From positions 64,232 to 128,231 of the forward strand of contig CAVQBT010000067.1 of the NCBI GenBank assembly GCA_963710795.1: a stretch of DNA of 64,000 nucleotides. Reading direction: 5' to 3'. The position numbers and the translations under genes are program-made. Origin of the DNA: an uncultured delta proteobacterium. GTDB lineage: Bacteria > Desulfobacterota > Desulfobacteria > Desulfobacterales > JAFDCJ01. This document shows, piece after piece, positions 1,175-43,068 of this stretch (the first letter of the stretch is position 1; each line of letters starts with the position of its first letter). The notes beneath the pieces are model-generated. The model did not search any database, was not told the DNA's origin, and saw only the letters and a list, made by a program, of their open reading frames with translations.

Positions 1175-2200
1175 TCATCTTAGTATAAAACCATCCTGGA
1201 GCGGATCGTCCGGATCGATTAAAAACTCGTGCCGACCGGTGATATATGCGCTGCCTTCAATTTGCGGAATGACGGCGGCATAGGGGCCAAAGATTGTCTC
1301 GCGAATAATCCTGCCGCAAAAGCGGGTGCCGATAATGCTTTCAATGGTGATGGCCTGGTTAAGGCTGACTTCTTGGCGGGTATGGTGGATGGCCAGGCGG
1401 CCGCTGACACCCGTGCCGGTGGGGCTGCGGTCCACTTCTCCTTCGGCAAAGACGCAGACATTGCGACTGTGCGCGGTTTCAGCCTCAGCCGGTCCGATGA
1501 AGATCGTACCGTATAGAAAGCTTAAATCTTTCTCAAAAGGGTGGGTGATGTCACGGGTTTTCATGATGGCTCGTTTAATGGCCATGCCTTTTTGAACCAG
1601 GGCCGGAAAGTCCCGCGGGGTGCAGGTCAGCCCGATGCTTGCCGCCTGTACGTAAGCGTAAAATGCACCGCCAAAGGCAATATCATACCGAACCTGCCCG
1701 ATGCCGGATACCTCGATCACATCATCGAGCGCCAACACAAATGAAGGGACATTTTCAAAATAAATGCGTTGGATCTTTTTTTCAACGATACAGGCATGCG
1801 CCGTCACCAGGCCGGCCGGTGAATCGATGCGGATCGTGGTTTCGGGCGCCCTTTGCGGCACCAGGCCGGTTTCCAGTGCCACTTTGACAATGGCGATTAT
1901 GCCGTGGCCGCACATGGTGCTGTAGCCTTCATTGTGCAGGAACAGGATGCCGAAATCCGCCCCGGGAGTTACCGGCGGAGTAACGATGCAACCATACATA
2001 TCCGCGTGGCCGCGCGGCTCCCACATCAACGCCGTGCGCAGGTGGTCCAGATGATCCTGCATGTGCCGGCGCCGTGCCAGGATGGTCTCACCCGGCAGGT
2101 CCGGCAATCCTGCGGTAATGACGCGAAACGGTTCACCGGCGGTGTGGGCATCGATGGTGCTTATTTTGAGCCAGTGTTCCGGCGGGTTCCAATTTTTCAT
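1175..2200 (-). CDS. Proline racemase-family enzyme, most consistent with trans-3-hydroxy-L-proline dehydratase (Cys/Thr catalytic pair)
   Basis: 341 aa. The first catalytic motif MCGHG retains Cys. In the second motif, SPTGTG, Thr replaces the second catalytic Cys (racemases and 4-Hyp epimerases have SPCGTG-like). This Cys/Thr pair is the established signature of T3LHyp dehydratases in this family. Confidence 0.6.
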   Translation of the reverse strand: MKNWNPPEHWLKISTIDAHTAGEPFRVITAGLPDLPGETILARRRHMQDHLDHLRTALMWEPRGHADMYGCIVTPPVTPGADFGILFLHNEGYSTMCGHGIIAIVKVALETGLVPQRAPETTIRIDSPAGLVTAHACIVEKKIQRIYFENVPSFVLALDDVIEVSGIGQVRYDIAFGGAFYAYVQAASIGLTCTPRDFPALVQKGMAIKRAIMKTRDITHPFEKDLSFLYGTIFIGPAEAETAHSRNVCVFAEGEVDRSPTGTGVSGRLAIHHTRQEVSLNQAITIESIIGTRFCGRIIRETIFGPYAAVIPQIEGSAYITGRHEFLIDPDDPLQDGFILR

Positions 2201-2500
2201 AGCGCACCCCTGTCAATTGAAGAATGAAGATTGAAGATTGAATATTTATGGTATTCTATCTGTTTATTTTCGCTCTATAATTCGTTCTTTGCGCATTCGT
2301 GGCAAAATAACGGGCATGGGTCTTTCCTTATCGTTCTCGATCTGGTGTGTCAATGGTGTGAATGGAAAGTCAGCTGAATTAATGCTTGCTTTTAATTTGA
2401 TTTTATATGAAAAATGGGTCTCATGGTTAAAAACAATGGATTTGGCGGTATGGGGTCTGTTTGCGTATAAAATGTGCTGATCAGAGTTTCAAAACCGCTC

Positions 2501-2712
2501 GTATGAAACTTCATGAAATCCGATGCCATTTCCAAGAGGTATCTCACCGCAGAGCACGCGGAGAGCGCAGAGATTATTTAAAATTTTCTTTCTCAGCGTT
2601 CTCGGCGAACTCTGCGGTGAACGATTAGTTTTTTTTCGATTTGACCGGCCGTTTTTTTGGCCGGCGGCGGCGCTGAACCCTGAACCCTGAACCTTGAAAC
2701 TTGAACCGATCA
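2501..2712. repeat. About 200-bp structured intergenic repeat, copy 1 (uninterrupted)
   Basis: gtatgaaacttcatgaaatccgatgccatttccaagaggtatctcaccgcagagcacgcggagagcgcagagatt...gaactctgcggtga...gaccggccgtttttttggccggcgg recurs at 36608-37030 with about 90% identity. It contains an internal inverted repeat caccgcagag/ctctgcggtg and a ccggcc-T7-ggccgg hairpin. Confidence 0.7.
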
Positions 2713-2735
2713 CCCTAATGAAAGGAGAATGAGAG

Positions 2736-4292
2736 ATGAAACTTATCAAACTGGTTTTAATTTGTCTAATGGCAGTGGGCTTGGTTTTTATGGCATCCAA
2801 TAGCTTTGCCAAGGTTACGCTGGTTTACGGCACCACCGAAAAAGTGACCGATATGGATCCGGCCAATGCCTATGATTTTCACACCTGGGAAATTTTTTAT
2901 AACATCTATCGCGGATTGATGTCCTATCCGGCAGGGAAAACCAACCTGGTGCCGGGCCTGGCCGAATCCTATGAAATCGTTGACGCCGGCAAAGGCTATA
3001 TTTTCAAGCTTAAAAAAGGGGTGAAATTTTCCGACGGCACGCCCTTTGACGCCAATGCCGTCAAATGGTCCATCGATCGGGTCATGCGGATTGCGGGGGA
3101 CCCTTCCTGGCTGGTCACGGACTTTGTCAAGAGCGTGGAGGTCCTGGATAAGTATCGGGTCAAATTCAACTTGAAAAATCCGGTGGCTTATTTCCCGGAC
3201 CTGGTGGCAACCGTTCCTTATTATCCGGTCAACCCCAACATCTATCCGGCCGACAAGATTGTTCAGGATCCTTCCGCCCTAAAAGGCGGGAAACTGGTTG
3301 GCCTGGGAGCATATCGGGTGATTTTCTTCAAAAGAGACCAGCAGATTGCCCTGGAGGCCAATCCCTATTATGTCGGTGAGAAGCCGAAAAACGACATGAT
3401 CATCATCCGGTACTTTGCCGATGCCACCACCATGCGGCTGGCTCTGGAAAAAGGCGAGCTGGATTTTGCATTTAAATCGTTCAATCCGTCGGATATCAAT
3501 GACCTGCAGAATATGAGGAAAATTAAAACCATCAAGGGCCAGGGTCCCTACATCCGTTATTTGTGTTTTCAGAACAACACCGAGCCCTTCACCAACAAAA
3601 TAGTACGCCAGGGCGTGGCCGCGGCCATCAATCGACCGGATATCATTAAAAAGGTCTTTCTGGGCCAGAATGAGCCCCTTTACTCCATGGTACCCATGGG
3701 GATGTGGACCCACGAAGACAGCTTCAAAGGAACCCTCGGTGACGGGAACATCGAATTGTCCCGCAAACTGCTGGCCCAGGCCGGCTTTAATGAAGACAAC
3801 AAGCTGGAATTTGAATTCTGGTATACCCCCAGCCACTACGGCGACACCGAAGTAGACATGGCCGCGGTGCTCAAAGCTCAATTTGAGGCCACCGGTGTCA
3901 TGGATGTCACGGTTAAATCCGCCGAATGGGCCACCTACAAGGACAATTGGCATAACCAGCTGATGCCGGTCTACCTGCTGGGCTGGTACCCGGATTACAT
4001 CGATCCGGATAACTATACGGCCGCCTTCGCCGGCACTGCCGGATCCAAGGGCAATGGCATTTACTTTTCCAATCCCAAGTGGGATGCCATGTTTGTAGAA
4101 GAACAGAAAACGACAAGCAAGAGCGAACGGGAGGCCATTTTCAAAAAGATACAGCAGATGTGGACCGTTGAAGTTCCGACAGCCCCTATTTTCCAGGGAA
4201 CTTTGTATATGTTTTCCCAGACCGACATCAATGGCATCAAAATTTCACCGACGCTTCAATTTATGTATGCGCCGATCGAGAAAGTAAAGTAA
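2736..4292 (+). CDS. ABC transporter substrate-binding protein, peptide/nickel family 5 (DppA/OppA-like)
   Basis: 518 aa with a signal peptide and typical SBP_bac_5 composition. A strong RBS (AAGGAGAA) precedes the ATG. It heads an operon with two permeases and two ATPases. Confidence 0.8.
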   Translation: MKLIKLVLICLMAVGLVFMASNSFAKVTLVYGTTEKVTDMDPANAYDFHTWEIFYNIYRGLMSYPAGKTNLVPGLAESYEIVDAGKGYIFKLKKGVKFSDGTPFDANAVKWSIDRVMRIAGDPSWLVTDFVKSVEVLDKYRVKFNLKNPVAYFPDLVATVPYYPVNPNIYPADKIVQDPSALKGGKLVGLGAYRVIFFKRDQQIALEANPYYVGEKPKNDMIIIRYFADATTMRLALEKGELDFAFKSFNPSDINDLQNMRKIKTIKGQGPYIRYLCFQNNTEPFTNKIVRQGVAAAINRPDIIKKVFLGQNEPLYSMVPMGMWTHEDSFKGTLGDGNIELSRKLLAQAGFNEDNKLEFEFWYTPSHYGDTEVDMAAVLKAQFEATGVMDVTVKSAEWATYKDNWHNQLMPVYLLGWYPDYIDPDNYTAAFAGTAGSKGNGIYFSNPKWDAMFVEEQKTTSKSEREAIFKKIQQMWTVEVPTAPIFQGTLYMFSQTDINGIKISPTLQFMYAPIEKVK

Positions 4293-4297
4293 AGATA

Positions 4298-4525
4298 ATA
4301 AAGGTTTCAGGTGTCAGGTTTCAGGTGTCAGGCAGTGGCAGTCCTAAAAAAACTGAAATCTGTGAAATTAGCTTTGCGGCTCCCTTAAATAGAGCAGCAA
4401 TTTCAAGGAATAGAGTTGAATATATTGGTTATTTGTCGGCCGGTTCTTAGGCGACTATGCATTGAAACCTTAGAATTCGGCTTTGATATTTGTTCCTGAC
4501 ACCCGAAACCTGACACCTGAAACCT
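4298..4525. repeat. Inverted pair of degenerate tandem-word repeats flanking about 170 bp of spacer
   Basis: 4298-4328 caggtgtcaggtttcaggtgtcaggc faces 4496-4525 cctgacacccgaaacctgacacctgaaacc (reverse-complement related). The pair sits between the SBP and permease genes. Confidence 0.6.
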
Positions 4526-4578
4526 ATTAATCGACAAATCAGGTTTTTCCGGTTAGCCATTGTTATTTATGTTCCCCT

Positions 4579-5595
4579 ATGAAAAATCTTCTTCGATACA
4601 TTATCGCGCGCACCTTGCTCACCATCCCCATGGTTTTCATTCTGTTAACGATCGTTTTCGTGGTCGTGCGGGTGATGCCCGGTGATCCGGTTTCCTCGAT
4701 GCTGGGCGGCCATGCCCCGGAAAAAGTCATTGAACAGAAAAAAGAAGAGTTGGGCCTGAATAAACCGCTGATCATGCAATACGGCAGCTACCTGTGGCAA
4801 ATCTGCCGCCTGGATCTGGGAAATTCCATGATATTCAAACAGCGGGTTATCGATACGATCAAGGAAAAACTGCCGGCCACCATTGAATTGACCTTTTTTG
4901 GCATGTTGATCACGCTTTTGGTGGGGGTGCCCCTGGGGGCTTATGCCGCCGACAAACGCAGATCCACCCAGGACTACACCATCCGTTTATATGGTATCGT
5001 GATTTATTGTATTCCGGTTTATTGGCTAGGCTTGATGCTGCAAATGATATTCGGCATCTGGCTGGATATCTTCCCGATAGCCGGCCGGACCGGTGCCCGG
5101 GTATTTGTCGCTGCGTTTGACAAATCCGGCTTTTATATTCTGGATACGATTCTGGCCGGGGATTATGAGGCGCTCAAGGACATCCTGATTCACCTGGTTT
5201 TGCCGTCCGTCACCCTGGGGCTGACCCTGTCGGGAATTTTTATTCGCCTGACCCGGGCCAACATGCTGGACGTTCTCAAATCCGACTATATTTTGGCAGC
5301 CGAAGCCCGGGGAATCAGGCACTTTCGCGTGGTGTACAAGCATGCCATGATAAATGCGTTTGTGCCCATCCTGACCATGATGGGGCTGCAGGTCGCTATT
5401 TTGATGTCCGGGGCTGTGCTAACCGAAACCACTTTTTCCTGGCCCGGCATGGGGCGGCTGCTATTGGAACGAATCTATCTGAGAGATTATCCCACCATTC
5501 AAGGGGTCATCGTCATTTTTGCCCTGATCGTGGCGGGCGTCTCGTTGGTGGTGGATATTATTTACGCCATGGTGGATCCGCGGGTGAGGTACTAG
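4579..5595 (+). CDS. ABC transporter permease (DppB/OppB-like)
   Basis: 338 aa with multiple TM segments and the BPD_transp_1 EAA-like region (...AAEARGIRHFRVVYKHAM...). Confidence 0.8.
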   Translation: MKNLLRYIIARTLLTIPMVFILLTIVFVVVRVMPGDPVSSMLGGHAPEKVIEQKKEELGLNKPLIMQYGSYLWQICRLDLGNSMIFKQRVIDTIKEKLPATIELTFFGMLITLLVGVPLGAYAADKRRSTQDYTIRLYGIVIYCIPVYWLGLMLQMIFGIWLDIFPIAGRTGARVFVAAFDKSGFYILDTILAGDYEALKDILIHLVLPSVTLGLTLSGIFIRLTRANMLDVLKSDYILAAEARGIRHFRVVYKHAMINAFVPILTMMGLQVAILMSGAVLTETTFSWPGMGRLLLERIYLRDYPTIQGVIVIFALIVAGVSLVVDIIYAMVDPRVRY

Positions 5596-5940
5596 GTTGT
5601 TAAAAATGAATTTTGTGAATATCGTGGCAAAATATTTTTTTATGCAGATATGAAGCTTCACGTAGAAATGACTAAAATTGCAAAGTGCCTAAAATGCCTA
5701 AAGTTGAGGAATTTTATCGATTGAAATAGAAAGGCAATGCAGGTCAACGGATTATTTATCTGATTTGGGGGTTCTTATGGCCAATTATCAAAACTGATAA
5801 AGAAGACGGAGCGAAGCGACACATTAATTTTAGTCATTTTAGATCATTTTAGTCATTTTCAAATTATCCGGATGAAGTTTTTAAAAAAGTAATGCCTCAT
5901 TTTGTAGAACTAAAAACCTTATGAAATTGAAAACATAACT

Positions 5941-6825
5941 ATGAAACATTCTCCCACTGCAGCATTGGCAAGGTTCATCGGGCACTTCTCGCGTATGGGC
6001 CAAAAGTACGGGGTGGAATGGTGGATTCTGGTGATCGGCGCCTTCATCATCCTGGCAATTATGTTAATGGCCCTGTTTGCCGGCACCATTGCGCCTTACA
6101 GTCCATTTAATCAGGATACCGGTCCCCAACTGGCACCGCCGAGCGCGGAACATCTCATGGGGACTGACAATCTGCAGCGCGATGTCTTTTCCCGCATCAT
6201 TTTCGGTGCCCGCACGATCCTGGGGGTGGCGATCCTGGCGGCCATTATATCGTCGATCGTGGGGATCTCACTGGGATTGATCTCTGGTTTTTCCGGTGGT
6301 GCTTTTGATAAGCTCTTGTCGCTGGTGATGGATTCAGTCTACTCCTTTCCAGGTCTTATTCTGGCGATTGCCTTTGCGGCAATGCTGGAGCCGGGGATTA
6401 TCAGTATTTCTTTCGCCGTGGCCGTCATATATATTCCGACCTACTTCCGGCTGGTGCGGGGCCAGACACTGACCATCAAGGAAGAGTTGTATGTCGAAGC
6501 CGCCAAGGCAATTGGGGCCCCCGGCCTATCCATCTTATGGAAGTATATCTTTCCTAATGTCATTGCCACCACAGCCGTAGTATTTACCATGAACGTCGGG
6601 GATGCCATCATGATCGAGGCGGCTTTAACTTACTTGGGCTTGGGGCTGCCGCCCAGTGTAGTGGACTGGGGGATGGATCTGGCCATGGGTAAAAAGTTTC
6701 TGCCGTCGGGTCAGTGGTGGCTGATTACGTTTCCGGGGGCCATGATTTCGCTGCTGGCGGTCGGATTCACCATGCTGGGTGAGGGACTGGCCGAGATTCT
6801 GAATCCAAGATTGTTGGAGCGTTAG
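5941..6825 (+). CDS. ABC transporter permease (DppC/OppC-like)
   Basis: 294 aa TM protein with the OppC-type N-terminus and permease core. Confidence 0.8.
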   Translation: MKHSPTAALARFIGHFSRMGQKYGVEWWILVIGAFIILAIMLMALFAGTIAPYSPFNQDTGPQLAPPSAEHLMGTDNLQRDVFSRIIFGARTILGVAILAAIISSIVGISLGLISGFSGGAFDKLLSLVMDSVYSFPGLILAIAFAAMLEPGIISISFAVAVIYIPTYFRLVRGQTLTIKEELYVEAAKAIGAPGLSILWKYIFPNVIATTAVVFTMNVGDAIMIEAALTYLGLGLPPSVVDWGMDLAMGKKFLPSGQWWLITFPGAMISLLAVGFTMLGEGLAEILNPRLLER

Positions 6826-6826
6826 C

Positions 6827-7786
6827 GTGAATCACAACATTCTTGAAATAGAAAATTTAAATGTGCATTTTCCGATCCATATCGGAACGGTGCGTGCGGT
6901 TGAAAATGTGAGTCTCGACCTTAAACAGGGGGAAGTCATGGGATTGGTGGGAGAGTCCGGCTGCGGTAAATCCACGCTGGGTTTTTCTATCCTGCGGCTT
7001 CTCAGGCCACCCGGAATGTTTGCCGGCGGGCAGATTCGCTATCATGGCAGTGATATCCTGACCATGAGTGAGGGGGAAATTTTAGGTCTGCGCGGCAAAC
7101 GGATCGCCATGATTTTTCAGGATCCCCTGACCTCTCTCAACCCGCTTTTTCGCATCGGCGACCAGTTTGCAGAGACTATTAGAACTCATGAAAAGGGAGT
7201 TTCCAAAAAACAGGCCCTGGAGCGTGCCGGGCAGATGCTTAAGCGTCTGGGCATTGCAGCGGATAGACTCGGTGAATATCCTCATCAGATGTCAGGGGGC
7301 ATGCGCCAGCGTATCATGATCGGGATGGCCCTGGTGTTGAATCCGGATTTACTCATCGCGGATGAACCGACGACATCGCTGGATGTGATTGTTGAAGCCC
7401 AATTCCTGGATCTTTTGAATGAATTGCGGGCCCAGTTCAACCTGACAATTTTATTGATCTCTCACAATCTTGGGATCGTGGCCCAGATGGCCGATCGCAT
7501 AACCGTTATGTACGGGGGGCGTCTGGCTGAATCCGGCAAGGCTGAAGCATTGTTTGCCGAGCCTTTGCACCCCTACACCCAGGGGCTTCTGGCTTCCATT
7601 CCCAATATTAAAATGGATCAACCGGAACTGCACATCATGCCCGGGGCTCCGCCGGATCTGGTTGATCCGCCGATCGGCTGCGTTTTTCACCCCCGTTGCC
7701 CGCACGTTATGGATAAATGCCGTCGGGAGATGCCGCCGAATGTTTATAAGGACGATCATCTGGCCGCGTGCTGGTTGTATGAATGA
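6827..7786 (+). CDS. ABC transporter ATP-binding protein (DppD/OppD-like)
   Basis: Walker [10 protein letters not shown], signature LSGGMRQR, Walker [13 protein letters not shown] and the C-terminal oligopeptide-ATPase extension. Its start overlaps the stop of the permease upstream. Confidence 0.85.
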
Positions 7787-7789
7787 GCT

Positions 7790-8788
7790 ATGAACAAACT
7801 GATTCAAATTAATAATTTGATAAAACACTTTCCCCTTGATAAGGGGTTTCTGGCGCATTTGTTTGGCAAGGACAAGCGCGTGGTGCGAGCCGTGGACGAT
7901 GTCTCTTTTTTTATCCGGGAGGGGGAGGTTCTGGGGCTTGCCGGAGAAAGCGGCTGCGGCAAAACAACCACCGGCCGACTGCTACTGCGGCTGCTCGAAC
8001 CCACCGGCGGCGAAGTCCTGTACCGGGACAAATCAGTCTTTCACAACACAACCGAGGAGATGCGCCATCTGCGTGAAAAAATGCAGGTCATCTTCCAGGA
8101 TCCCTTTGCTTCACTGAGCCCGCGGATGAACATCGGGGCATCCATCGGCCATCCACTTCAAATTCACACCTCGCACAGTGCTGCGGAAATCAGAGATAGG
8201 ACCCATGATATCATGGAAAAGGTGGGGCTTTCACCGGCCGCATTTTTGAGCAAAAAATATCCCCATCAGCTTTCCGGGGGGCAGCGGCAGCGGGTGGTGA
8301 TCGCCAGGGCCTTAATTACCGATCCGGATTTCGTGGTGGCCGATGAGCCTCTCGCCATGGCCGATGTATCTGTCAGTGCTATGATTCTGGAATTGATGGT
8401 TCGATTAAAAGAAGAATTTGATCTGACCTATCTTTTTATTACCCATGATCTGGCCACCTGCAAGTATATCTGTGACCGTATCGCCATTATGTATTTGGGC
8501 CAGATCCTTGAAATCGGACCGCTGGATGAGGTCTTCAAACATCCGGTGCATCCGTATACGGTATCTCTGCTGGCAGCCGTACCGGTGCCGGATCCCAAAT
8601 TCAGGCGCACCGACACCATTCCCAAAGGTGAAATCCCCAGTGCCATCGATCCGCCTTCCGGATGCCGCTTTCATCCGCGCTGCTCCTATGCCGTTGCGGA
8701 ATGTTCCGTTAAAATGCCGGTGCTTGAGAATGCTGCCGGTGACCATTGGGTTGCCTGCCCGGTGAGGCTGAATGCCGGGGGGCGATGA
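7790..8788 (+). CDS. ABC transporter ATP-binding protein (DppF/OppF-like)
   Basis: Walker [10 protein letters not shown], signature LSGGQRQR and Walker B VVADEP. Confidence 0.85.
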
Positions 8789-9033
8789 CAGAATTCGGAA
8801 GTGGGAAGTCGGAATGCGGAAGTCGGAAGCCAGATGAAAGAAGGTGAGAGGTTGGGAAGGTGGGATGGGAAGGGCATGATGCATAGGGTAGAGCGCAAAG
8901 CGCACAGAAGGTAAAAAACTAAAGAATTACCACGGAAGGGCACGGAGCTGCACAGAAAGATTCCGAATAAAAATAAATTGTTTCCGTGTATTTTCGTGAA
9001 GATCCGTGGTGAGGAAATTTAAAAAGGCAGACT

Positions 9034-10440
9034 ATGAAAATGTTTCCAGCTTCAACATATATCGAAAGACGCAAAAGACTGAAAGAAAACTTCAAATCGG
9101 GAATTCTGTTGTTTCTGGGCAACGACCAAAGTCCCATAAACTATCCGGACAACGCGTATGCCTTCCGGCAGGATAGTACGTTTCTGTATTTCTGGGGCAT
9201 CGATTTGCCCGGCTTGTCAGCGATCATCGATATCGATCAGGACCGGGAAACTGTTTTCGGACGGGATCTGACGATTGAAGATATCATCTGGAGCGGACCC
9301 CAGACCAGCCTAAAAGAGCATTGTCTGGCCGCCGGTGTTGAAGACGTTTCGACTCCGGATCAGCTTGAAGGCGCTTTGCAGGCAGCGGTGCAAAAGGGTC
9401 GCAGGGTACATTTTCTGCCGCAATATCGACCGGAAAATTTAATCAAGATTCAGCGCTTGTTGGGGTTGAGCGCGGGGATTGTCAACGAGCACGTTTCGCC
9501 TTCCTTCATCAAAGCTGTTGTCAGTCATCGATCAATAAAAACCGCCGAAGAAATTCAGCAGATCGAAACGGCGCTGGATGTTACCTTTGAAATGCACACC
9601 CTGGCTATGAAAATATCACGCCCGGGGATGTATGAGAAGGAAGCAGTCGGAGCCATGGCCGGACTTGCCTATTCCCGAGTCAGCTCGATACCGGCGTATC
9701 CGATAATTTTTACAACCCGCGGGCATATCCTTCACAACCCCCACCATGGGAATGTCATGCGGGAAAATGATCTGGTCATCAATGATTCCGGCAGTGAATC
9801 CGCTCTGCACTATGCCAGTGACATTACCAGAACCTTTCCGGTGGGCGGGAAATTTAGTGAAAAACAAAAGGAAATGTATTCCATTCTGCTCAAGGCCCAG
9901 ATAAAAGCTGTTGAACGTGTGCGTCCCGACATTGAGTATCGGGAGATCCATCTAAATACTGCCAGAGATATAGCGCTGGACCTAATCGCCCTGGGGTTGA
10001 TGAAAGGAGATGTGGACGAAGCGGTGGCCGCCGGCGCCCATGCCTTGTTTAATCCGGCTGGGTTGGGTCATATGCTGGGCCTGGATGTGCATGACATGGA
10101 GGATCTTGGTGAAGACTATGTCGGGTATACCGATGCCATTCAAAGAAATCCCCAGTTTGGCATCAACCGCCTGAGACTTGCCAAAAAACTTGAAGCCGGC
10201 TTTGTCATCACCGTTGAGCCGGGTTTGTATTTTATACCGGAGCTGATCGATCAGTGGCAAGCTGAAAAAAAATTCGAAGCATTCATCGATTATGATAAGG
10301 TGCAAACCTATCGTGATTTCGGGGGTATTCGCATCGAAGACGATGTCCTGGTTGTCGATGGAGGGCAGCGCATACTGGGAAAGCCCATCCCCAAAAGTAT
10401 TGATGAAGTTGAGGAATTATCCTCTAAAAAAAATGACTAA
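9034..10440 (+). CDS. pepP: Xaa-Pro aminopeptidase (M24B family, PepP/PepQ-like)
   Basis: 468 aa with the N-terminal AMP_N region and a C-terminal M24 pita-bread fold containing conserved His/Asp/Glu metal ligands (HGLGHMLGLDVHD, ITVEPGLY, IRIEDDV). Confidence 0.75.
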   Translation: MKMFPASTYIERRKRLKENFKSGILLFLGNDQSPINYPDNAYAFRQDSTFLYFWGIDLPGLSAIIDIDQDRETVFGRDLTIEDIIWSGPQTSLKEHCLAAGVEDVSTPDQLEGALQAAVQKGRRVHFLPQYRPENLIKIQRLLGLSAGIVNEHVSPSFIKAVVSHRSIKTAEEIQQIETALDVTFEMHTLAMKISRPGMYEKEAVGAMAGLAYSRVSSIPAYPIIFTTRGHILHNPHHGNVMRENDLVINDSGSESALHYASDITRTFPVGGKFSEKQKEMYSILLKAQIKAVERVRPDIEYREIHLNTARDIALDLIALGLMKGDVDEAVAAGAHALFNPAGLGHMLGLDVHDMEDLGEDYVGYTDAIQRNPQFGINRLRLAKKLEAGFVITVEPGLYFIPELIDQWQAEKKFEAFIDYDKVQTYRDFGGIRIEDDVLVVDGGQRILGKPIPKSIDEVEELSSKKND

Positions 10441-10472
10441 ATGAATATCTCAATTGAAAGGAGGAAATAGAG

Positions 10473-10817
10473 ATGAAATATATCATCATCCTTGTTTCAT
10501 GTGTGATGTTAGTCGTCTTTGCCGGACTGCTTCCGGTTATGGGCAGCAATACCCAGAGGGTCAAGGGGTCTGGATCCCCTGCGGCGGCACCCTCGCAACA
10601 AGTGACGTGGGAGGTGCCGATTGCCCCCGGAATCTATTATCCCAGCGACGGTCCGCTGCCGGATAAACCGATGCGTTACTACCGGGTGCGGTGCTGGCCG
10701 GGCTGTCACACCGGCAGTTCCCTTGGCAAATATCCGGATAAAGCGCTCAACGACAAGCCCATCTTCCCAACATCAACCATCGATGGGCACACGGCCACGG
10801 CACCATCAAAAGAATAG
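10473..10817 (+). CDS. Small secreted hypothetical protein
   Basis: A strong RBS (AAAGGAGGAAATAGAG) precedes the ATG. The N-terminal signal peptide is MKYIIILVSCVMLVVFAGLLPVMG. I recognise no family. Confidence 0.45.
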   Translation: MKYIIILVSCVMLVVFAGLLPVMGSNTQRVKGSGSPAAAPSQQVTWEVPIAPGIYYPSDGPLPDKPMRYYRVRCWPGCHTGSSLGKYPDKALNDKPIFPTSTIDGHTATAPSKE

Positions 10818-14711: not shown

Positions 14712-15878
14712 TTACTTCTTATTTTGAAAATCCGCAATTTCCGCCACGGCCCGGATTGCGGTTTGGATGTGCGCCTCGGTATTAAAGGGGCCGATACCCA
14801 TGCGCACCGTCCCGCCAATTTTATCGGTACCCAATTGCTCGTGCACCAAGGGGGCGCAATGGAGTCCGGTGCGGCAGGCGATATTGTACTCGCCGTCCAA
14901 TAAGGTGCCTGTGTTGAGTGCTTCCATTCCTTCGATATTGAAGCTGAGAACGGCAATGTGGTCGGTCAAATCATCCTGACCATACAGCAGGATCCCATCT
15001 ATCTCCCTGAGTCCGTCTCTCAGCATCCGGGTCAGCTTCATTTCCTGGTGGTGAATCTGATCCAGGCCTTTTTGCTGGATCCATTTCAAACCGGCATGTA
15101 TCCCCGCAATACCCACGACATTGCCGGTCCCGTACTCAAGCCGGTAGGGATACTCGTCCAGATGCAACCGCTGGGCCGACCGGACTCCCGTTCCACCGGC
15201 CCGGGTATGTCGAATCTCAATCCCCTCTCGCACATATAGACCGCCAATGCCGGTCGGGCCCAGCAATGATTTATGGCCGGTAAACGCCACGACATCGATG
15301 TGCATCTGCTCGACATCAATCGGTACTTTGCCGGCGGACTGGGAGGCATCAATTGCAAACGCGACATCGTGCTCGCGGCAGATGCGGCCGATGGCCTCCA
15401 CGGGTTGCACCGTACCGATCACGTTGGAGGCATGATTGACAATGACCAGGCGGGTATTTGCTTTAATTTTTTGTTTGATTTCGTCAGGATCGACAAATCC
15501 ATTGGTGTCGAACGGAACGTAATCAACCTCGACATCATTGAATTTGTTCTGGTGATACAGTGGTCGGAGTACCGAATTGTGTTCGAGGGTGGTGGTGACG
15601 GCATGATCGCCCGGCTGCAGCATACCGAAAATGATCAGGTTCAGCGCGTCGGTGGAGTTATAGGAAAAGCACAGACGGTTGGGGTCATCGCCGTTAAAAA
15701 AATCGGCCAGCATTTTGCGGGTCGTGTCCACGACGGCGCCGGTTTCCATGCACAGGTCATATCCGGAGCGTCCCGGGTTGACGCCGAAGCGCCGGTAAAA
15801 AGAATCCATAAAGGTGTATACTTCATCCGGTTTGGGATAGGAAGTGGCGCCATTGTCGAGATAAATCAAATTTTCCAT
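14712..15878 (-). CDS. Aminotransferase class V (cysteine desulfurase family PLP enzyme)
   Basis: MENLIYLDNGATSYPKP... N-terminus, PLP-lysine region FTGHKSLLGPTGIGGLYV, and an SD (GGGAGA) before the internal ATG chosen as the start. Confidence 0.7.
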   Translation of the reverse strand: MENLIYLDNGATSYPKPDEVYTFMDSFYRRFGVNPGRSGYDLCMETGAVVDTTRKMLADFFNGDDPNRLCFSYNSTDALNLIIFGMLQPGDHAVTTTLEHNSVLRPLYHQNKFNDVEVDYVPFDTNGFVDPDEIKQKIKANTRLVIVNHASNVIGTVQPVEAIGRICREHDVAFAIDASQSAGKVPIDVEQMHIDVVAFTGHKSLLGPTGIGGLYVREGIEIRHTRAGGTGVRSAQRLHLDEYPYRLEYGTGNVVGIAGIHAGLKWIQQKGLDQIHHQEMKLTRMLRDGLREIDGILLYGQDDLTDHIAVLSFNIEGMEALNTGTLLDGEYNIACRTGLHCAPLVHEQLGTDKIGGTVRMGIGPFNTEAHIQTAIRAVAEIADFQNKK

Positions 15879-16026
15879 TACAGTGTCTCCCTTAATTAAT
15901 TCGCTCTGTAAGCTTCTACCTGAATTTCGCACGTATTCCGAGCCGCAATGAATAAGCTTGTACATCAGTAATTTATTCGAAGCGAAGTTTGCTGCTATAA
16001 ATTCAGGTGTTAATTTTTTCAGAAAA

Positions 16027-16637
16027 TTAGTGGCTTTGGGTCAAAACTGTTTCAAAACGTTCAAGGGCCCAATCGATTTCGTCCTTTTGTATCACTAGGG
16101 GCGGAGAAATGCGGATGATGTCGTTGTGGGTGTCTTTGCATAACATTCCGATTTCCTTTAGTTTTTCGCAGTAGCGGCGGGCACCGCCGGCTTCAAACTT
16201 TAGCTCTAGGCCAATCATCAGCCCCCGGCCGCGGGCCTCCTTGATCAGGTGGCTGTCGATTTGACGCAGTCCGTTAAGGAAATAAGCCCCCATTTGCGCA
16301 CCGCTTTGATAGCCGATTCTACGGCTTCAGATCCGCTGTTCATGGGCAGAATCTTGTGGTAGTGGATGTATTCGCGGATGGTCTGGTAAAGCAGGGCGAG
16401 CTTATCATTTCGAAACGCCCGGGATGTCAGAGTCAACTTCGCGGCCTGCTCGACCAGGGCTTTCATAATCCTGGGATGGCAATGGCCTTGATTAACGGCC
16501 GAATATGCTGCCAGACAATCAAGATACTTGCGGCCTTCATGATCCCAAACCCAGACTCTTTCGCCGCGGGAAATAATTACGTCAAGGGGTTTATAATTAT
16601 GCGCCCCCAACTCATCTTCTATCTGAATAAAACCCAT
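16027..16637 (-). pseudogene. Ornithine/acetylornithine aminotransferase (class III) remnant: N-terminal about 125 aa and C-terminal about 88 aa joined out of frame, with about 180 internal codons missing
   Basis: ORF 16245..16637 reads ...[70 protein letters not shown] (OAT N-terminus). ORF 16027..16293 reads ...[18 protein letters not shown]...HNDIIRISPPLVIQKDEIDWALE (OAT C-terminus). The two are in different frames and the PLP-lysine region is absent. Confidence 0.7.
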
Positions 16638-16727
16638 CGCGTGTCTCCTGCTATTAGAGAATCCAATTCAATCAAATTTCATCTGAATGTGGAGAGCTGA
16701 GTTCGCCTTGCTCACCTGCCGGAGACT

Positions 16728-17021
16728 TTAGGGCCTAATCTTTTCCAGTATCTCTCCATCTGCATTCAGCATGAATATCATGAAGCCATTTTTGGCGGCC
16801 GCTTGGACCAGTTCGCTATAGTATACGGCCTGAACTTCATATTTATTGCCCTTCCTGGTTGTCATATGAACCAAACATTGCTGGGCACCTTCCTTTTCAA
16901 AAAAGGCGGGAATAAATGACACGTTTTGATCTTCGTACTCCTGCCCCAGAAACTGTTCATCGGCACCGGGATTTTGTACAACCACCCAAATCCAGGTATC
17001 GGGTTTGATCTCCTTTTTCAT
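16728..17021 (-). CDS. Hypothetical protein
   Basis: 97-aa ORF with plausible coding statistics and no recognisable family. Confidence 0.35.
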   Translation of the reverse strand: MKKEIKPDTWIWVVVQNPGADEQFLGQEYEDQNVSFIPAFFEKEGAQQCLVHMTTRKGNKYEVQAVYYSELVQAAAKNGFMIFMLNADGEILEKIRP

Positions 17022-17132
17022 TACCGGTATCCTCTCATTTTTAATTCGACTCCGTCATAAACTCAGCGCATCGCTGTCCGGCGGTCCGGTTGAGTTTGCC
17101 TCGCATATCGATTTGCATTTTATTGGAAGCTA

Positions 17133-25875: not shown

Positions 25876-26652
25876 GTGATTGATATGATGCAACACAGAA
25901 GAGGTATAATAATTTTGACTTTGGTGGCAATAGCCCTGCTAGCCCTGTCAGCGTCGGCTGGCGCCACCCCAATCCCAATTGTTAACTCCAGTTTTGAGGA
26001 TCAGGTGCTGGGGAACGATGATTGGACCTGGTCAGAGCCTCATCCGACGAACCCTTCAGAGCCTGGCTGGAATACTCCGACTCCGGGCTGGGCCAAGGTG
26101 GGCACAGATGGCAACGGGGTATGGAACCCTACATGGAGTGACTTCAGATGGGTGGTCGCACCCGACGGCAAGAATGTGCTGTATACTGAGAGCTCTATTG
26201 ATGGAACTCCCAGCGGAGTGGGGCAGGTCTTGACAGAAAAGTTTGCGGCCAACACAGACTACACGCTGACCGCCAGTGTGGGTAATTCGGATGAGTACTA
26301 CTGGTCGGGCTATAGCGTCCAACTCCTGGCTGGCGAAACCGTTATCGCCGAGGACTACAACACGCTGTGGCCAGACTACAGGAAGTGGGCTACTTCGACG
26401 GTTGACTACAGCTATGACCCGACTGACGGGGCCCTTGTGGGGCAGCCGCTGGAGATTCGCTTGCTTAATTTGGGCATCGATATGGATAAGGATGATAGTG
26501 AAAATTATGATATCGTCGGAGTCGAGTTTGATGCCGTGTCACTCAACGCCGATACACTCAACCCTACACCCACCCCCGAGCCCGCCACCATGCTCCTTCT
26601 AGGCTCTGGATTAGTGGGGCTTGCATGCATCCGGAAGAAGTATAAGAAGTAA
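25876..26652 (+). CDS. PEP-CTERM sorting-domain secreted protein
   Basis: N-terminal signal peptide. The C-terminus ...PTPEPATMLLLGSGLVGLACIRKKYKK has the PEP motif, a TM helix and a basic tail, the exosortase substrate signature. Confidence 0.75.
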   Translation: MIDMMQHRRGIIILTLVAIALLALSASAGATPIPIVNSSFEDQVLGNDDWTWSEPHPTNPSEPGWNTPTPGWAKVGTDGNGVWNPTWSDFRWVVAPDGKNVLYTESSIDGTPSGVGQVLTEKFAANTDYTLTASVGNSDEYYWSGYSVQLLAGETVIAEDYNTLWPDYRKWATSTVDYSYDPTDGALVGQPLEIRLLNLGIDMDKDDSENYDIVGVEFDAVSLNADTLNPTPTPEPATMLLLGSGLVGLACIRKKYKK

Positions 26653-38404: not shown

Positions 38405-38743
38405 ATTATCCTCCTGCATCTGCTGCGTTTGTTTGAAAAAATAATGCAAAATCCGGCCGAATAGTTAGGATTTTGATAAATTCACAGTCGTAACAAATAG
38501 CCGATTCAATCCATACTATTAGGTATTATAACGCTTTTTAGTTGTAAATTTCAATAGGTTTGTTAATAGCTGAATTTTTCATGCCGATAATCCTGAATCC
38601 GGATAAACCGGAAAGAAAATCCACAAAGACACAAAGAAAGAATTTTCATTATAACTAAATTTCGTGTCTTAGTATCTGGTGGCAAATATTTGAAAGTCAC
38701 TAGCTTGTATCGGCCGGAATTGGAGAAACTTTACGGATTAACT

Positions 38744-41185
38744 ATGGAAAAAGACCCCGGACACATAGAAGTGGCCGTTGCACTTCCGGTTTTTCATACC
38801 TTTACCTATGTTGTCCCTGAAATATTCAAGGACCATGCAGCAGCGGGCAGAAGAGTGCTGGTGCCGTTTGGGCGGCGCAGGGTCACCGGGTATATTTTCG
38901 GGCTAAGTCGAAATTCGGACCAGAAAGAGCTCAAACCGATTCTTGATATCTTCGACGAACAGCCCCTCTTTCCGCCGGGCATGGTACCGTTTTTCAAGTG
39001 GATTGCGGACTATTATAAGTATCCCATCGGAGAGGTGGTCAAAAATGCGCTGCCGGGTGGTTTAAATGTCTACGATTACTCATTGATTACCCTTACGGAA
39101 AAAGGGCGCAGGGCGCACAAAAGCGAGAAGCTGTCACCGGTTGCCAAAAAAGTTTTGAAGCAATTGGAGGCGGGACCCTGCCGGCTGAGCAAGCTTTATA
39201 AAAATATTGATCAAAAAATTCCCGCTGCCCTGCTTTACAATTTTGAGCAGAGCGGTTGGATTGCCCGAAAATGGGAACTCAAAGGAGCCACTACCAAAGC
39301 CAGACTGGAGCGATTCATTCGCCTGGGGGATACCAGTTTGCCGGTGGACCGACTATCAAAGCCTCGACAAAAGATAATCGAATTGTTAAAAAGCGAAAAA
39401 GAGATGGCCGTCAATAAAGTTAAAGCGGTGGTTCCCACTGCTGCGGCCTTGATTAAGCCGCTTGAAAGCTCCGGTTATCTGACGATTGAACACAAAAGAG
39501 TTTACCGGGATCCTTTCGGTGAATCAATCAAACCCGATATTGCCCCCATCCTAAACCGGGAGCAGCAACATGCCGTTTCGCATGTCTGCAAATATCTGAA
39601 TGAAGGGTATCACCCGTTTCTGCTAAAAGGGGTGACCGGAAGCGGGAAAACCGAAGTTTACATGCAGGTGGCGGCCGAGGTACTAAAAAAAGGCCGTTTG
39701 GTTCTGGTACTGGTGCCGGAAATCGCGCTGATTACCCAGATAGAGCGGCGATTCCGTGCCCGGTTTGGTGAATGTGTCTGTGTGCTGCACAGCGGGTTGT
39801 CCGCCGGGGAGCGCTATGATCAGTGGACCCGTATCCTGCTGGGGGAAGCCACGGTCGCAATCGGTGCCCGTTCGGCGATATTTGCTCCCTTTAGCAATCT
39901 CGGCGTTATTATTGTCGACGAAGAGCATGACGCATCTTACAAACAGGAAGGCAAACTGCGCTATAACGCCCGGGATCTGGCGGTGGTCCGGGCCAAACAA
40001 AATGAGTGTATCGTGATTCTGGGATCGGCGACGCCGTCCATCCAGTCTTACTATAACGTTGCAACCAACAAGTTTGCCGAACTCACTCTCAGCAAGCGCG
40101 TAGAAGCGCGGCTTTTGCCTGAAATCCGGATTGTCGATCTTCGTCAAACCCGCGATTCCCGAGGGATTCAACGCTTCATCACCCCTGAACTGCAGTTGGC
40201 CATGAAAGAGACACTTGAACGCGGTGAACAGGTGTTGCTTTTTCTAAACCGACGGGGATACGCAAGTTTTCCAGTTTGCGGTGCCTGTGGTGAGGCTATG
40301 TGCTGCAAATATTGCGATATCACACTAACCCTGCACCAGCGTTCCAACGCCTACCGATGTCATTACTGTGGCTATAGCCGGGCTGCCACATCCAGCTGCG
40401 ATATTTGCGGTTCAACCAAAATTAAACACCTGGGCCTTGGCACCGAAAAATTGGAAGATAGCTTGACATCGCTCTTCAAAAAGGCCCGGGTTGCCCGGAT
40501 GGATCGTGATACAACGCGCCGCAAAGGATCGATCATAAAGATCCTCAAAGGGGTTAAAAATAACAGCATCGATATTTTAGTGGGTACCCAGATGGTTGCC
40601 AAAGGGCATGATTTCCCGAACATCACCCTGGTCGGAATTATCTGTGCGGATCTTTCCCTGAGTTTTCCGGATTTTCGAGCCGGTGAACGGACCTTTCAAC
40701 TGCTGGCCCAGGTTGCCGGTCGGGCAGGGCGGGGCGACAGACCCGGCCGGGTGATTTTGCAAACGTACAACCCGGAACATTTCTGTATTTCCGCCGCTCG
40801 AAGCCAGGATTTTAATTCATTTTATCAGCAGGAGATCATTTTCAGGCAGGCTCTGGCATATCCGCCGTTTACCAGAATGATTCAGCTTAAAATAGCCGGC
40901 AAGGACCCCCAGAAAACCGAAAAACATGCCAATCTTGTCGGAGATCACTGCCGCAAGCTGAAATCGATCCATTCCGCCCATTACCAGAGTGTCCAGATTA
41001 TGGGTCCCATTGAAGCATCTCTGACCAGAATCGCCGGGCGCTACCGCTGGCAGATTCTATTGAAAGGTTCAAATACCGGGGCGCTGCATCAATTTATCAA
41101 TCAACTCAGGACTGAATGCCATTCAGACTTCAGCCATCGACGGATCCAGGTGGCGATTGATGTGGATCCGGTCTTTTTGATGTAG
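38744..41185 (+). CDS. priA: Primosomal protein N' (PriA helicase)
   Basis: N-terminal 3'-binding domain, helicase motifs GVTGSGKTEVY, DEEHD, a Cys-rich zinc-binding insert (CGACGEAMCCKYCD...CHYCG...CDICGS) and C-terminal helicase motifs. The ORF opens at 38690 but the conserved N-terminus begins at the ATG at 38744. Confidence 0.85.
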   Translation: MEKDPGHIEVAVALPVFHTFTYVVPEIFKDHAAAGRRVLVPFGRRRVTGYIFGLSRNSDQKELKPILDIFDEQPLFPPGMVPFFKWIADYYKYPIGEVVKNALPGGLNVYDYSLITLTEKGRRAHKSEKLSPVAKKVLKQLEAGPCRLSKLYKNIDQKIPAALLYNFEQSGWIARKWELKGATTKARLERFIRLGDTSLPVDRLSKPRQKIIELLKSEKEMAVNKVKAVVPTAAALIKPLESSGYLTIEHKRVYRDPFGESIKPDIAPILNREQQHAVSHVCKYLNEGYHPFLLKGVTGSGKTEVYMQVAAEVLKKGRLVLVLVPEIALITQIERRFRARFGECVCVLHSGLSAGERYDQWTRILLGEATVAIGARSAIFAPFSNLGVIIVDEEHDASYKQEGKLRYNARDLAVVRAKQNECIVILGSATPSIQSYYNVATNKFAELTLSKRVEARLLPEIRIVDLRQTRDSRGIQRFITPELQLAMKETLERGEQVLLFLNRRGYASFPVCGACGEAMCCKYCDITLTLHQRSNAYRCHYCGYSRAATSSCDICGSTKIKHLGLGTEKLEDSLTSLFKKARVARMDRDTTRRKGSIIKILKGVKNNSIDILVGTQMVAKGHDFPNITLVGIICADLSLSFPDFRAGERTFQLLAQVAGRAGRGDRPGRVILQTYNPEHFCISAARSQDFNSFYQQEIIFRQALAYPPFTRMIQLKIAGKDPQKTEKHANLVGDHCRKLKSIHSAHYQSVQIMGPIEASLTRIAGRYRWQILLKGSNTGALHQFINQLRTECHSDFSHRRIQVAIDVDPVFLM

Positions 41186-41297
41186 TTATAAAATTTGAAA
41201 ATCAAATTTTATGTTTCTTGACAATCCGCGGCATGCGTCATAAAATTTTTTTAGTTTCAACGGACTATAAATTTGGAAGGTTTTAAAAGGAGTTAAT

Positions 41298-42014
41298 ATG
41301 AGATTAAAAGGTCTTACTGGTTTTTCGATTGCGCTATTTTTGACACTGTTCGCGGCCGTTTGTTTCGGCACTCAAGATCTACCTACCCCATCGGCGGTCT
41401 TCCCGGAAACCAGCTATGAATTTTCGGCGGTGCTGGATGGGGCCAAAGTCGTGCATGAATTCGTTATTCAAAACAAGGGTACGGCGCCGCTGAAAGTTGA
41501 AAAAGTCAAAACCGGCTGAGGGTGCACGGCTGTCTCTTATTCAAGAGAGATCCCCGCCGGCGGCGAGGGAAAAATAACTCTAAGCGTCAATACCAAAGGC
41601 TATGGCGGAAGGAAATTGAAGAAGACCGCAGGCGTTTATACGAATGATAAAAATCGTCCGCAACAGGACCTGGTTATATCCGGCCTGGTGGAGAACTTTG
41701 TCACAATTCGTCCGCAACATGTCAGTTTACGCGGATTTGCCGGAGATCCCATCAAAGGCCAGGTTTCGATCATTCCCGAAAAAAAATATCCGTTTAAAAT
41801 TCTCGAGGCCCGGGCGAAGGACGGTAAAAACATCAAATTTAAGCTGGATGAAATAAACAGTCCCAATGGCCAGGCTTATGAATTAAATGTTGAAAATCTG
41901 AGAGAAAAAACCGGTCGCTATTATGACACCATCATTCTGAAAACAGACAGTAAGGTTCGGCCGGAGCTCAACGTGAGGGTTTACGGATATCTGAGTGCTC
42001 GCAAAAGCGAATGA
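41298..42014 (+). CDS. DUF1573-like secreted protein with an in-frame UGA (candidate selenocysteine) at codon 74 (41517-41519)
   Basis: ORFs 41298..41519 and 41616..42014 are in the same frame, separated only by TGA. The read-through reads ...APLKVEKVKTG-U-GCTAVSYSREIPAGGEGKITLSVNTKGYGG.... This parallels the DUF1573 core ...PLVISNV.TSCGCT...I.PG..G.I.V.F..., with U in place of the first Cys. Signal peptide, RBS AAAAGGAG, and a hairpin (tctctt-attc-aagaga) 15 nt after the UGA. Confidence 0.6.
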
Positions 42015-42015
42015 A

Positions 42016-42648
42016 ATGGATCGAATATCCAAGATAAAAATTAAACTTGTTGCATTTGATTGTGACGGGGTGATGTTCGACACCGCTCAGGCTAATCGTT
42101 TCTATTATAGCCACATTTTGCAGCATTTTGACAGACCGGCAGTAACAGACGAACAATTTACCTTTGTCCATATGCATACAGTGGACGAATCCATGGCCTA
42201 TTTGTTTCCTGATCAAACAACTCTGGCAGCGGCCTATGAATTTCGCAAAAGCATGGATTATAGACAGTACCTCGGATACTTCACCATAGAACCACACCTT
42301 GTTTCTTTGCTCGAAAAGCTTCGGCCTCGGATAAAAACGGCTATTGCCACCAACCGGACGGACACCATTGACCGGTTGCTGGCAGCGTTTAACCTGGACG
42401 GGTATTTTGACCTGGTTGTCACCGCCAGCGATGTCATGCGGCCCAAGCCTCATCCTGAAGCGTTGCTAAAAATTTTGAATTATTTTGACCTTGAAACTGA
42501 TCAGACAATTTATATCGGCGATTCCCAGGTAGACGAACTGGCAGCCCGGGCGGCGGCAATACCATTGGTCGCATTCCGCAACCGGGAACTATCAGCGGAC
42601 TACCATATCGATACTCTCAAAGAGCTTGAAGCATTGCTTGAATTGTGA
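42016..42648 (+). CDS. HAD-superfamily hydrolase (phosphoglycolate phosphatase-like)
   Basis: Motif I VAFDCDGVMFDT, motif II ATNRT, motif IV IGDSQVD. The ATG is 2 nt after the upstream stop. Confidence 0.7.
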   Translation: MDRISKIKIKLVAFDCDGVMFDTAQANRFYYSHILQHFDRPAVTDEQFTFVHMHTVDESMAYLFPDQTTLAAAYEFRKSMDYRQYLGYFTIEPHLVSLLEKLRPRIKTAIATNRTDTIDRLLAAFNLDGYFDLVVTASDVMRPKPHPEALLKILNYFDLETDQTIYIGDSQVDELAARAAAIPLVAFRNRELSADYHIDTLKELEALLEL

Positions 42649-42693: not shown

Positions 42694-43068
42694 ATGAACA
42701 TGGAAACAGAAGTACCTGAAGAAAATCAAGAGGATATTGCCTTTAACAGCAACGACTGGAATAATCGCGTTTTATGCAGCGACGGCAACTGCATCGGCGT
42801 GATCGGTTCGGATGGACACTGCAAAGAGTGCGGGAAAAAGTATGAAGGCGATCTTCCCGCGCAGAGCCCCTCTGAGAACGAAGATCAAACTGTGGCGCCA
42901 GAACAAGAAACTGTAGATTCGTCTTCAGCGACAACCGAAATACATGAAGTTGCAGATGCCCCGCTCGATGATGAGTGGGAAAATAGAGTTTTATGCAGTG
43001 ACGACGCTTGTATCGGTGTCATCGGACCCGACGGCAAATGCAAAGAATGCGGCAAACCTTCCAAATGA
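42694..43068 (+). CDS. Small acidic protein with two tandem zinc-ribbon-like repeats
   Basis: Repeat 1 DWNNRVLCSDGNCIGVIGSDGHCKECGKK and repeat 2 EWENRVLCSDDACIGVIGPDGKCKECGKP (C-x4-C-x9-C-x2-C each), separated by an acidic linker. Confidence 0.45.
   Translation: MNMETEVPEENQEDIAFNSNDWNNRVLCSDGNCIGVIGSDGHCKECGKKYEGDLPAQSPSENEDQTVAPEQETVDSSSATTEIHEVADAPLDDEWENRVLCSDDACIGVIGPDGKCKECGKPSK

Follow-up and report, generated by a model that had tools for sequence, protein, structure and literature searches.

In a 64,000-nucleotide stretch of DNA from an uncultured delta proteobacterium (contig CAVQBT010000067.1, positions 64,232 to 128,231; this whole stretch is called the window, and its own numbering is used throughout), a list of open reading frames (ORFs) places two short frames one after the other on the forward strand, 41298..41519 (73 amino acids) and 41616..42014 (132 amino acids, with a TTG start). 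The question raised by this locus is whether the two are separate genes, the remains of a broken gene or one gene whose internal UGA is read as selenocysteine (Sec). An initial annotation, made from the sequence alone, had favored the last of these and proposed a selenoprotein of the DUF1573 family. According to our analysis, 41298..42014 is almost certainly a single intact gene in which the internal UGA encodes selenocysteine, and we consider it highly probable that the gene, with its UGA so decoded, specifies a secreted selenoprotein of two immunoglobulin (Ig)-like domains that belongs to the OS_HP2/DUF1573 family.

Reading frame and conservation of the UGA codon

The two listed ORFs share one frame and, as had been noted, only the TGA at 41517-41519 stands between them. 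In the 239-codon translation of 41298..42014, this TGA (codon 74) is the sole internal stop and a second TGA, at 42012-42014, is terminal; the residues around the internal codon read ...KVEKVKTG*GCTAVSYSREIPAGGEGKITLSVNTKGYGG..., and the DUF1573 domain spans it. The ribosome-binding site and signal-peptide-like N-terminus that the initial annotation had described can both be seen in the sequence, the latter as a charged n-region followed by a hydrophobic stretch, with homologs ending equivalently (...SFG, then VE). A sigma-70-type promoter is located 52 nucleotides 5' of the ATG, within the 112-nucleotide gap between priA and the gene.

The fate of codon 74 was followed in 82 homologous sequences, comprising the window, one related locus (L001) and 80 loci from a scan of one genome per species (here and below, L-numbers are related genome loci and P-numbers homologous proteins, as labelled in the present analysis). 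Nearly all of the 80 loci come from Desulfobacterales-type metagenome-assembled genomes, which agrees with the Desulfobacterota setting suggested earlier. At the column of residue 74 (U74), the codon is TGA in 77 of the 82 sequences and TGC or TGT in five, a recurrence well beyond what chance would give, and TGA is present in all 73 loci that have a HAD-family gene as their downstream neighbor. A sense codon in close relatives had been named as the mark of a nonsense mutation; the same-locus orthologs keep TGA. Cys-containing homologs at this column, which the initial annotation had proposed to look for, do exist (the five TGC/TGT sequences), though away from this locus.

Protein databases reflect the same codon in a less direct manner. 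Among the top 120 homologs, about 90 are 132-residue C-terminal fragments, 73-99% identical to the window protein; gene callers had ended the first ORF at this TGA in numerous further organisms, and the mis-annotation is systematic. At the U74 column, full-length homologs of about 50% identity have Cys (KTSCGCT, KTGCGCT) or what looks like Trp. As the underlying DNA reads TGA, which was seen at that codon for one database 'Trp' entry, the 'W' entries are taken as gene calls made with genetic code 4 on short contigs.

When 118 mutually diverse representatives having both domains were aligned with MAFFT, the motif columns held C-x-C in 95 of the 118 (CGC in 77) and 'WGC' in five, with a few retaining the first Cys only, and a His equivalent to H53 of the window protein was kept in 98 of 109 representatives. 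The internal UGA therefore replaces the first Cys, which is also the most conserved one, in the family C-x-C motif, giving U-G-C, exactly where it had been placed by the initial annotation. Furthermore, few parts of the protein are as well conserved across relatives as the 32 codons that separate the TGA from the TTG (GCTAVSY...PAGGEGKI...NTKGYGG). There and further downstream, third codon positions vary freely while the amino acids are kept, the pattern expected when translation runs on beyond the TGA and is under purifying selection.

The SECIS-like element

The UGA of codon 74 is predicted to lie within an extended structure that resembles a selenocysteine insertion sequence (SECIS). In this structure, a basal helix pairs CCGGC 41512-16 with GCCGG 41556-60, the UGA sits in a bulge, and GGG 41520-22 pairs with CCC 41552-54; an asymmetric internal loop then leads to an apical hairpin, in which 41533-38 pairs with 41543-48 or, in a slipped register, 41532-38 pairs with 41545-51. 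The small hairpin that had been reported 3' of the UGA thus exists (TCTCTT 41533-41538, loop ATTC 41539-41542, AAGAGA 41543-41548), but its coordinates were one base off, and it begins 13 rather than 15 nucleotides after the UGA.

The structure is best seen by comparison. In an alignment of the 77 TGA-form sequences (A3), for which helix pairs were specified manually, the core helix joins columns 31-35 with 42-46 (GUCUC/GAGAC), and double substitutions keep the pairing: the pair 32-45 is UA in 53 sequences, UG in 14 and CG in seven, and the pair 33-44 is CG in 63 and UA in seven. In several of the compensatory changes, a non-synonymous substitution in one arm is matched by a substitution in the opposite arm (e.g., V to A with AGA to AGG, or GUC to GUU with R to K). 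Four-fold sites show suppressed synonymous variation at codons -2, -1, +5, +8, +11 to +13 and +16 relative to the UGA, an extent that matches that of the element. Hairpin energies, calculated for a 28-nucleotide window at +8 to +35, averaged -8.8 kcal/mol in the 77 Sec forms as compared with -3.0 in the five Cys forms; for 2,541 control windows taken from these genes, the mean was -2.97. Folds of a 56-nucleotide segment share the extended architecture (z of about -3.4 in L003 and L074), which the Cys forms do not adopt. A putative SECIS stem-loop downstream of the UGA is thus conserved, with compensatory changes, in the TGA forms only.

One variation of the element touches the coding sequence. 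The window, L002 and the locus of the Olavius algarvensis delta-1 endosymbiont encode R-E or K-E instead of R-Q, and their UCUCUU/AAGAGA register is slipped by two bases. Such a two-nucleotide slip, relative to A3 columns 31-48 of most relatives, was observed in the window (41532-41551), L002, L007, L020/L028/L037/L046 and the Olavius locus. The arms of the apical helix are (UC)n/(GA)n-like and the slip tracks the change of R-Q to R-E/D, a coding change that the slippage of the stem appears to accommodate.

Relative to the classical bacterial SECIS (the Escherichia coli fdhF type and the bSECISearch consensus), the element of the window family likewise presents a stem-loop immediately 3' of the UGA, a lower helix that takes in the UGA region and a structure maintained by compensatory substitutions. 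The spacing in fdhF is about 11 nucleotides, and the apical helix of the window family, starting 10-13 nucleotides after the UGA, is comparable in this respect. Unlike the classical element, it has no conserved apical G (or GU), no evident bulged U and no Rfam match.

We infer that decoding relies on SelB, Sec-tRNA(Sec) and the hairpin at 41512-41560. In this mechanism, the roughly 50-nucleotide mRNA hairpin around and 3' of the UGA would recruit SelB with Sec-tRNA(Sec), and the ribosome would insert selenocysteine at codon 74 instead of terminating, while the second UGA (42012-42014), having no such hairpin, would end translation.

Membership in the OS_HP2/DUF1573 family

The read-through product was compared with Pfam and NCBIfam profiles, the Pfam query carrying Cys at codon 74. 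DUF1573 (PF07610) matched residues 35-129, across the TGA, with E=4.5e-20 and a score of 71.9 bits (cutoff 26.1), which confirms the domain assignment of the initial annotation, and PF22544 (HYDIN-VesB-CFA65-like Ig domain) matched with E=5.4e-10. A more specific match was obtained with NCBIfam NF041425, the 'OS_HP2 family (seleno)protein', at 147.7 bits (E=9.6e-44; curated cutoff, 100), where window residues 36-132 align to profile positions 2-98 of 98.

DUF1573, which the initial annotation did not know as an established selenoprotein family, is in fact one: it is the OS_HP2 of Zhang and Gladyshev (2007, Nucleic Acids Research 35:4952; PMC1976440), who listed it in their Table 2 with two selenoprotein genes, from the Olavius delta-1 and delta-4 symbionts, and gave no Cys homolog for it. 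Two reviews tabulate a 'DUF1573 domain-containing protein, PF07610, motif UGC' among prokaryotic selenoprotein families, and both credit it to the 2007 study (PMC9312934, PMC13188914). The representative given in the 2022 review is CAB1076174.1 of the Olavius algarvensis delta-1 endosymbiont, which is P0075 in our list of homologs; the window read-through product is 81% identical to it over 238 residues, with no gaps. The delta-1 locus reads KTG*GCTAVSY, with TGA at the same column, and its gene order is PriA, a 73-residue ORF, the TGA, a 132-residue ORF, HAD, a small ORF and a response regulator. The type member and the window gene thus agree in length (238 amino acids), in the U-G-C motif, in the order from PriA through the gene and HAD to the small ORF, and in a TCTCTT...AAGAGA hairpin of the same type after the UGA. 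We see no substantive difference between them, the window gene being the ortholog in another Desulfobacterales genome. Because the window gene is thus orthologous to the sequence on which a catalogued family was founded, the selenoprotein finding is not new, the family having been on record since 2007 and being covered by a curated NCBI model. The database record of the representative CAB1076174.1 is itself a 132-residue fragment annotated as 'hypothetical protein' (P0075; L082 3183-3899).

Within the broader Pfam DUF1573/PF22544 group of secreted or lipoprotein Ig-like domains, the window protein shares the domain match, the tandem Ig-like fold and the C-x-C column. Most DUF1573 proteins carry Cys where the window protein carries Sec and, unlike DUF1573 at large, it is one of a subfamily having two domains, the second of which is also Ig-like and has no Pfam model. 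In numbers, 148 representatives match at E<=1e-30 (the two-domain subfamily) out of 13,589 at E<=1e-3.

Fold and possible function of the U-G-C site

An AlphaFold2 model was made of a natural Cys homolog, P0010, which is 50% identical to the window protein (mean predicted local distance difference test score, pLDDT, 90.5). The model shows an N-terminal helix (4-22), a disordered linker and two beta-sandwich domains, i.e., an all-beta tandem Ig-like arrangement. Strands 67-74 and 78-83 are joined by a tight turn that contains the Sec/Cys position, and the equivalent of H53 is found at the same end of the sandwich as this turn. Foldseek comparison against the Protein Data Bank (PDB) matched Ig-like domains of the ciliary ASH/HYDIN type, the bacterial matches being an uncharacterised Porphyromonas gingivalis protein (2qsv) and the Ig-like domain of VesC, and a sequence search of the PDB with the family profile returned nothing at E<=0.1.

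From its N-terminal features, the window protein is predicted to be secreted and periplasmic, and once the signal peptide is removed, U74 and C76 are its only Sec/Cys residues. Among the homologs, P0005, P0013 and P0019 are fused to an OmpA-type (PF00691) peptidoglycan-binding domain while still being of the TGA ('W') form, and these fusions fit a periplasmic location. In other homologs, including P0002 and P0004, the C-terminal Ig-like domain, for which there is no Pfam model, occurs in two to four tandem copies.

As to function, one possibility is that U74 and C76 form a redox-active or nucleophilic selenol/thiol pair, a proposal built on the modelled site and the motif for which we see the chances as evenly balanced. 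After export and signal-peptide cleavage, U74 would attack as a selenol nucleophile and C76 would resolve, so that a U74/C76 selenenylsulfide would act on a periplasmic thiol, disulfide or sulfur species. The thioredoxin-fold U-x-x-C selenoproteins (DsbA-, peroxiredoxin- and glutaredoxin-like), which make up the bulk of prokaryotic selenoproteins, similarly have Sec in place of a conserved Cys near a partner Cys and have Cys-form homologs. In the window protein, by contrast, a U-x-C is placed in a beta-turn on an Ig-like sandwich, and not a U-x-x-C at a helix N-terminus.

More speculatively, and as a proposal that we regard as improbable although worth stating, the U-G-C turn and the near-invariant His might together form an uncharacterised kind of selenium site, serving as a sulfane sulfur/polysulfide carrier or as a chalcophile-metal scavenger in sulfate reducers, whose periplasm is sulfidic. 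The sulfur-carrier logic of such a site may be likened to that of SoxY, which is Ig-like with a Cys arm. A HAD phosphatase, to which the gene is strictly linked across Desulfobacterales, might contribute to this function.

Alternative explanations

The evidence for Sec insertion has some weaknesses that should be considered together. Neither selA, selB nor selD was present among the 43 ORFs scanned with Pfam in the 64-kb window, and no tRNA, hence no tRNA-Sec, was found in it. As the window holds no Sec machinery, Sec decoding by this genome is deduced from the gene and its relatives. The RNA element of the window itself is also weaker than that of most relatives: the full element is barely better than shuffled sequences (z=-0.78) and folding of the window region alone was unconvincing (z=-1.14). 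Unguided RNAalifold gave a trivial alternative structure and missed the helix, which is clear only from manually specified pairs and per-sequence folds. No Rfam family matched anywhere in the window at the gathering threshold, a permissive Rfam scan of 41400-41700 gave only chance snoRNA-like or leader-like matches (E>1), and the apical loop lacks a conserved G (UAUU, AUAUCC, UUACAC, etc.). In this last respect, it should be noted that some accepted bacterial selenoprotein genes also deviate from the consensus SECIS model (PMC9312934). The reviews, moreover, class the family as a computational prediction (PMC9312934, PMC13188914). On the functional side, Foldseek showed no oxidoreductase fold in the PDB, the fold being an Ig-like sandwich, and the PriA and HAD neighbors give no hint of function.

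If the UGA were read without selenium, through an alternative code (Trp or Gly) or by near-cognate suppression inserting Trp or Cys, the absence of Sec machinery from the 64-kb window and the full-length database entries with W at this position would be as expected. Yet these 'W' entries are code-4 calls on short contigs, and TGA ends 13 of the 33 Pfam-supported genes of the window, this gene included; TGA being a normal stop here, the code is standard and one with a sense UGA is excluded. The structured element, with its compensatory changes, is kept solely in the TGA forms, homologs have Cys at the aligned position, as in the classic Sec/Cys pair, and related Desulfobacterales, such as the Olavius delta-1 symbiont, are documented as heavy Sec users (PMC1976440). 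Readthrough of this kind is accordingly very improbable. Even less room is left for a nonsense mutation or sequencing error in a pseudogene, although gene callers do split the sequence into ORFs of 73 and 132 residues, both here and in most database entries. TGA is found in 77 of the 82 sequences, across genomes whose proteins are merely 43-75% identical, the downstream part remains in frame with its amino acids conserved and third positions variable, and no same-locus ortholog has a sense codon, so that this explanation is effectively refuted. The same literal ORF list and existing database annotation could be read as two independent small genes, a 73-residue secreted peptide and a 132-residue protein starting from TTG 41616. 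We find next to no likelihood in this either, given that a single DUF1573/NF041425 domain crosses the TGA (residues 35-132), that the 32-codon stretch from the TGA to the TTG ranks with the best conserved parts of the protein, that the Cys-form homologs are continuous proteins and that in the P0010 model one beta-sandwich takes strands from both sides of the site.

A different matter is what the inserted Sec does. With the same insertion, U-G-C and the His could bind a soft metal (Cu, Ni, Zn, Hg or Cd) or carry sulfane sulfur, with no redox couple involved, and we hold this to be unlikely, albeit far less so than the explanations that dispense with Sec. The C-x-C and the near-invariant His share one end of the sandwich, and the Ig-like fold is non-enzymatic. 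In addition, chalcophile metals are bound tightly by selenolate and are in short supply in sulfidic periplasms. Among the selenoproteins of the 2007 study and of the review tables, many handle metals, e.g., the MerT-like, CopZ-like, YHS, CobW-like and cation ATPase proteins. The conserved neighborhood, however, contains no metal-transport or sulfur-oxidation genes, and a few family members keep the first Cys only (CGF, CAM, CAI, CGV), which suits a lone nucleophile better than a chelate. The redox or nucleophilic pair described above remains our preferred function for the Sec site, at the even balance stated there.

Genomic neighborhood and other features of the window

The features of the locus are collected in Table 1.

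Table 1 Features at and around the selenoprotein gene, in window coordinates.
Feature	Position	Strand	Basis or remark
OS_HP2/DUF1573 selenoprotein gene (almost certain)	41298..42014	+	Complete; 238 codons and TGA stop; Sec at codon 74
Sigma-70-type promoter, TTGACA-17 nt-TAAAAT	41218..41246	+	Scan; 11/12 consensus positions (near-consensus)
Ribosome-binding site AAAAGGAG	41285..41292	+	Read from sequence; ends 5 nt before ATG 41298
Predicted type-I signal peptide, residues 1-24 (...AAVCFG, then TQ)	41298..41369	+	Inferred from sequence features
DUF1573 Ig-like beta-sandwich domain, residues 35-129, with H53 and U74-G75-C76	41400..41684	+	Pfam PF07610, PF22544
In-frame UGA, predicted selenocysteine codon U74	41517..41519	+	TGA column in relatives, including the Olavius delta-1 locus
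Extended SECIS-like element	41512..41560	+	Folds, pair counts, compensatory changes, hairpin energies, synonymous suppression
Second Ig-like beta-sandwich domain, residues ~135-235	41700..42002	+	No Pfam model; strands 137-235 in P0010 model
PriA, primosomal helicase, upstream neighbor	38690..41185	+	Pfam PriA domains; NCBIfam NF004066, 824 bits
HAD-IA family hydrolase, downstream neighbor	41995..42648	+	Pfam HAD_2, E=3.8e-30; start overlaps selenoprotein stop by 20 nt
124-residue ORF	42694..43068	+	No Pfam or NCBIfam family

HAD is the next gene 3' in 73 of 81 related loci, and PriA precedes the family gene in 52. A PAS histidine kinase, encoded on the opposite strand, is also part of the neighborhood in the window. 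For the HAD neighbor, NCBIfam gave only generic HAD-IA matches, and neither it nor the 124-residue ORF received a specific function. The latter keeps its position 3' of HAD in 20 related loci, as does its 123-residue counterpart in the Olavius locus, and may be a further member of this conserved run of genes.

The five Cys-form loci do not have the PriA/HAD neighborhood and are located elsewhere; as they lie outside it, the sampled Cys forms are not same-locus orthologs. Cys-form loci include L055 (~6742-10812), L069 (3545-6289), L077 (4116-6806) and L048 (2363-5648). Three Cys forms are directly upstream of a protein of about 900 residues with a 2Fe-2S NuoG/FdhA-like N-terminus, and one adjoins an MvhD-like protein and a 950-residue protein. 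These contexts might hint at a link with redox complexes, but the loci are too few and too closely related, and we dropped any functional inference from them.

When the window was scanned for further genes interrupted by TGA, which would have been independent evidence of Sec use, only non-coding-looking translations were obtained, at 2264-2824(-), 16278-17060(+) and 16027-17021(-), and no second selenoprotein gene was found. In the last of these regions, which is beside 14712-15965 (-), a class-V aminotransferase (NifS/IscS-like), an ORF of about 130 residues (16245-16637) resembles the N-terminus of a class-III (ornithine/acetylornithine-type) aminotransferase and breaks off, and is followed by a further 88-residue ORF in another frame; 16027-17021 (-) may thus be a frameshifted or truncated gene. 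Elsewhere in the window, the cluster at 1175-10440 encodes a proline racemase, an oligopeptide-type ABC transporter (SBP_bac_5, two permeases and two ATPases) and an Xaa-Pro aminopeptidase (M24), a content that suggests uptake and use of proline peptides; no PrdB-type selenoprotein was seen adjoining it. At 25876-26652 (+), we noted a PEP-CTERM-anchored protein with an HpiC1-cyclase-like domain (PF22825, E=2e-33).

Implications for the family

To what was already catalogued, the present analysis adds a comparative definition, absent from the cited papers, of an extended SECIS-like element that reaches into a basal helix around the UGA and does without the canonical loop G, together with the strict PriA/HAD synteny of the Sec forms, the conserved His by the U-x-C pair and the Cys homologs now known. 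Automatic gene callers still split or mistranslate this selenoprotein gene. Should the U-G-C turn and the His indeed form the selenium site proposed above, which we consider doubtful at present, this would give a first function for the large DUF1573 family, with its more than 13,000 representative clusters.

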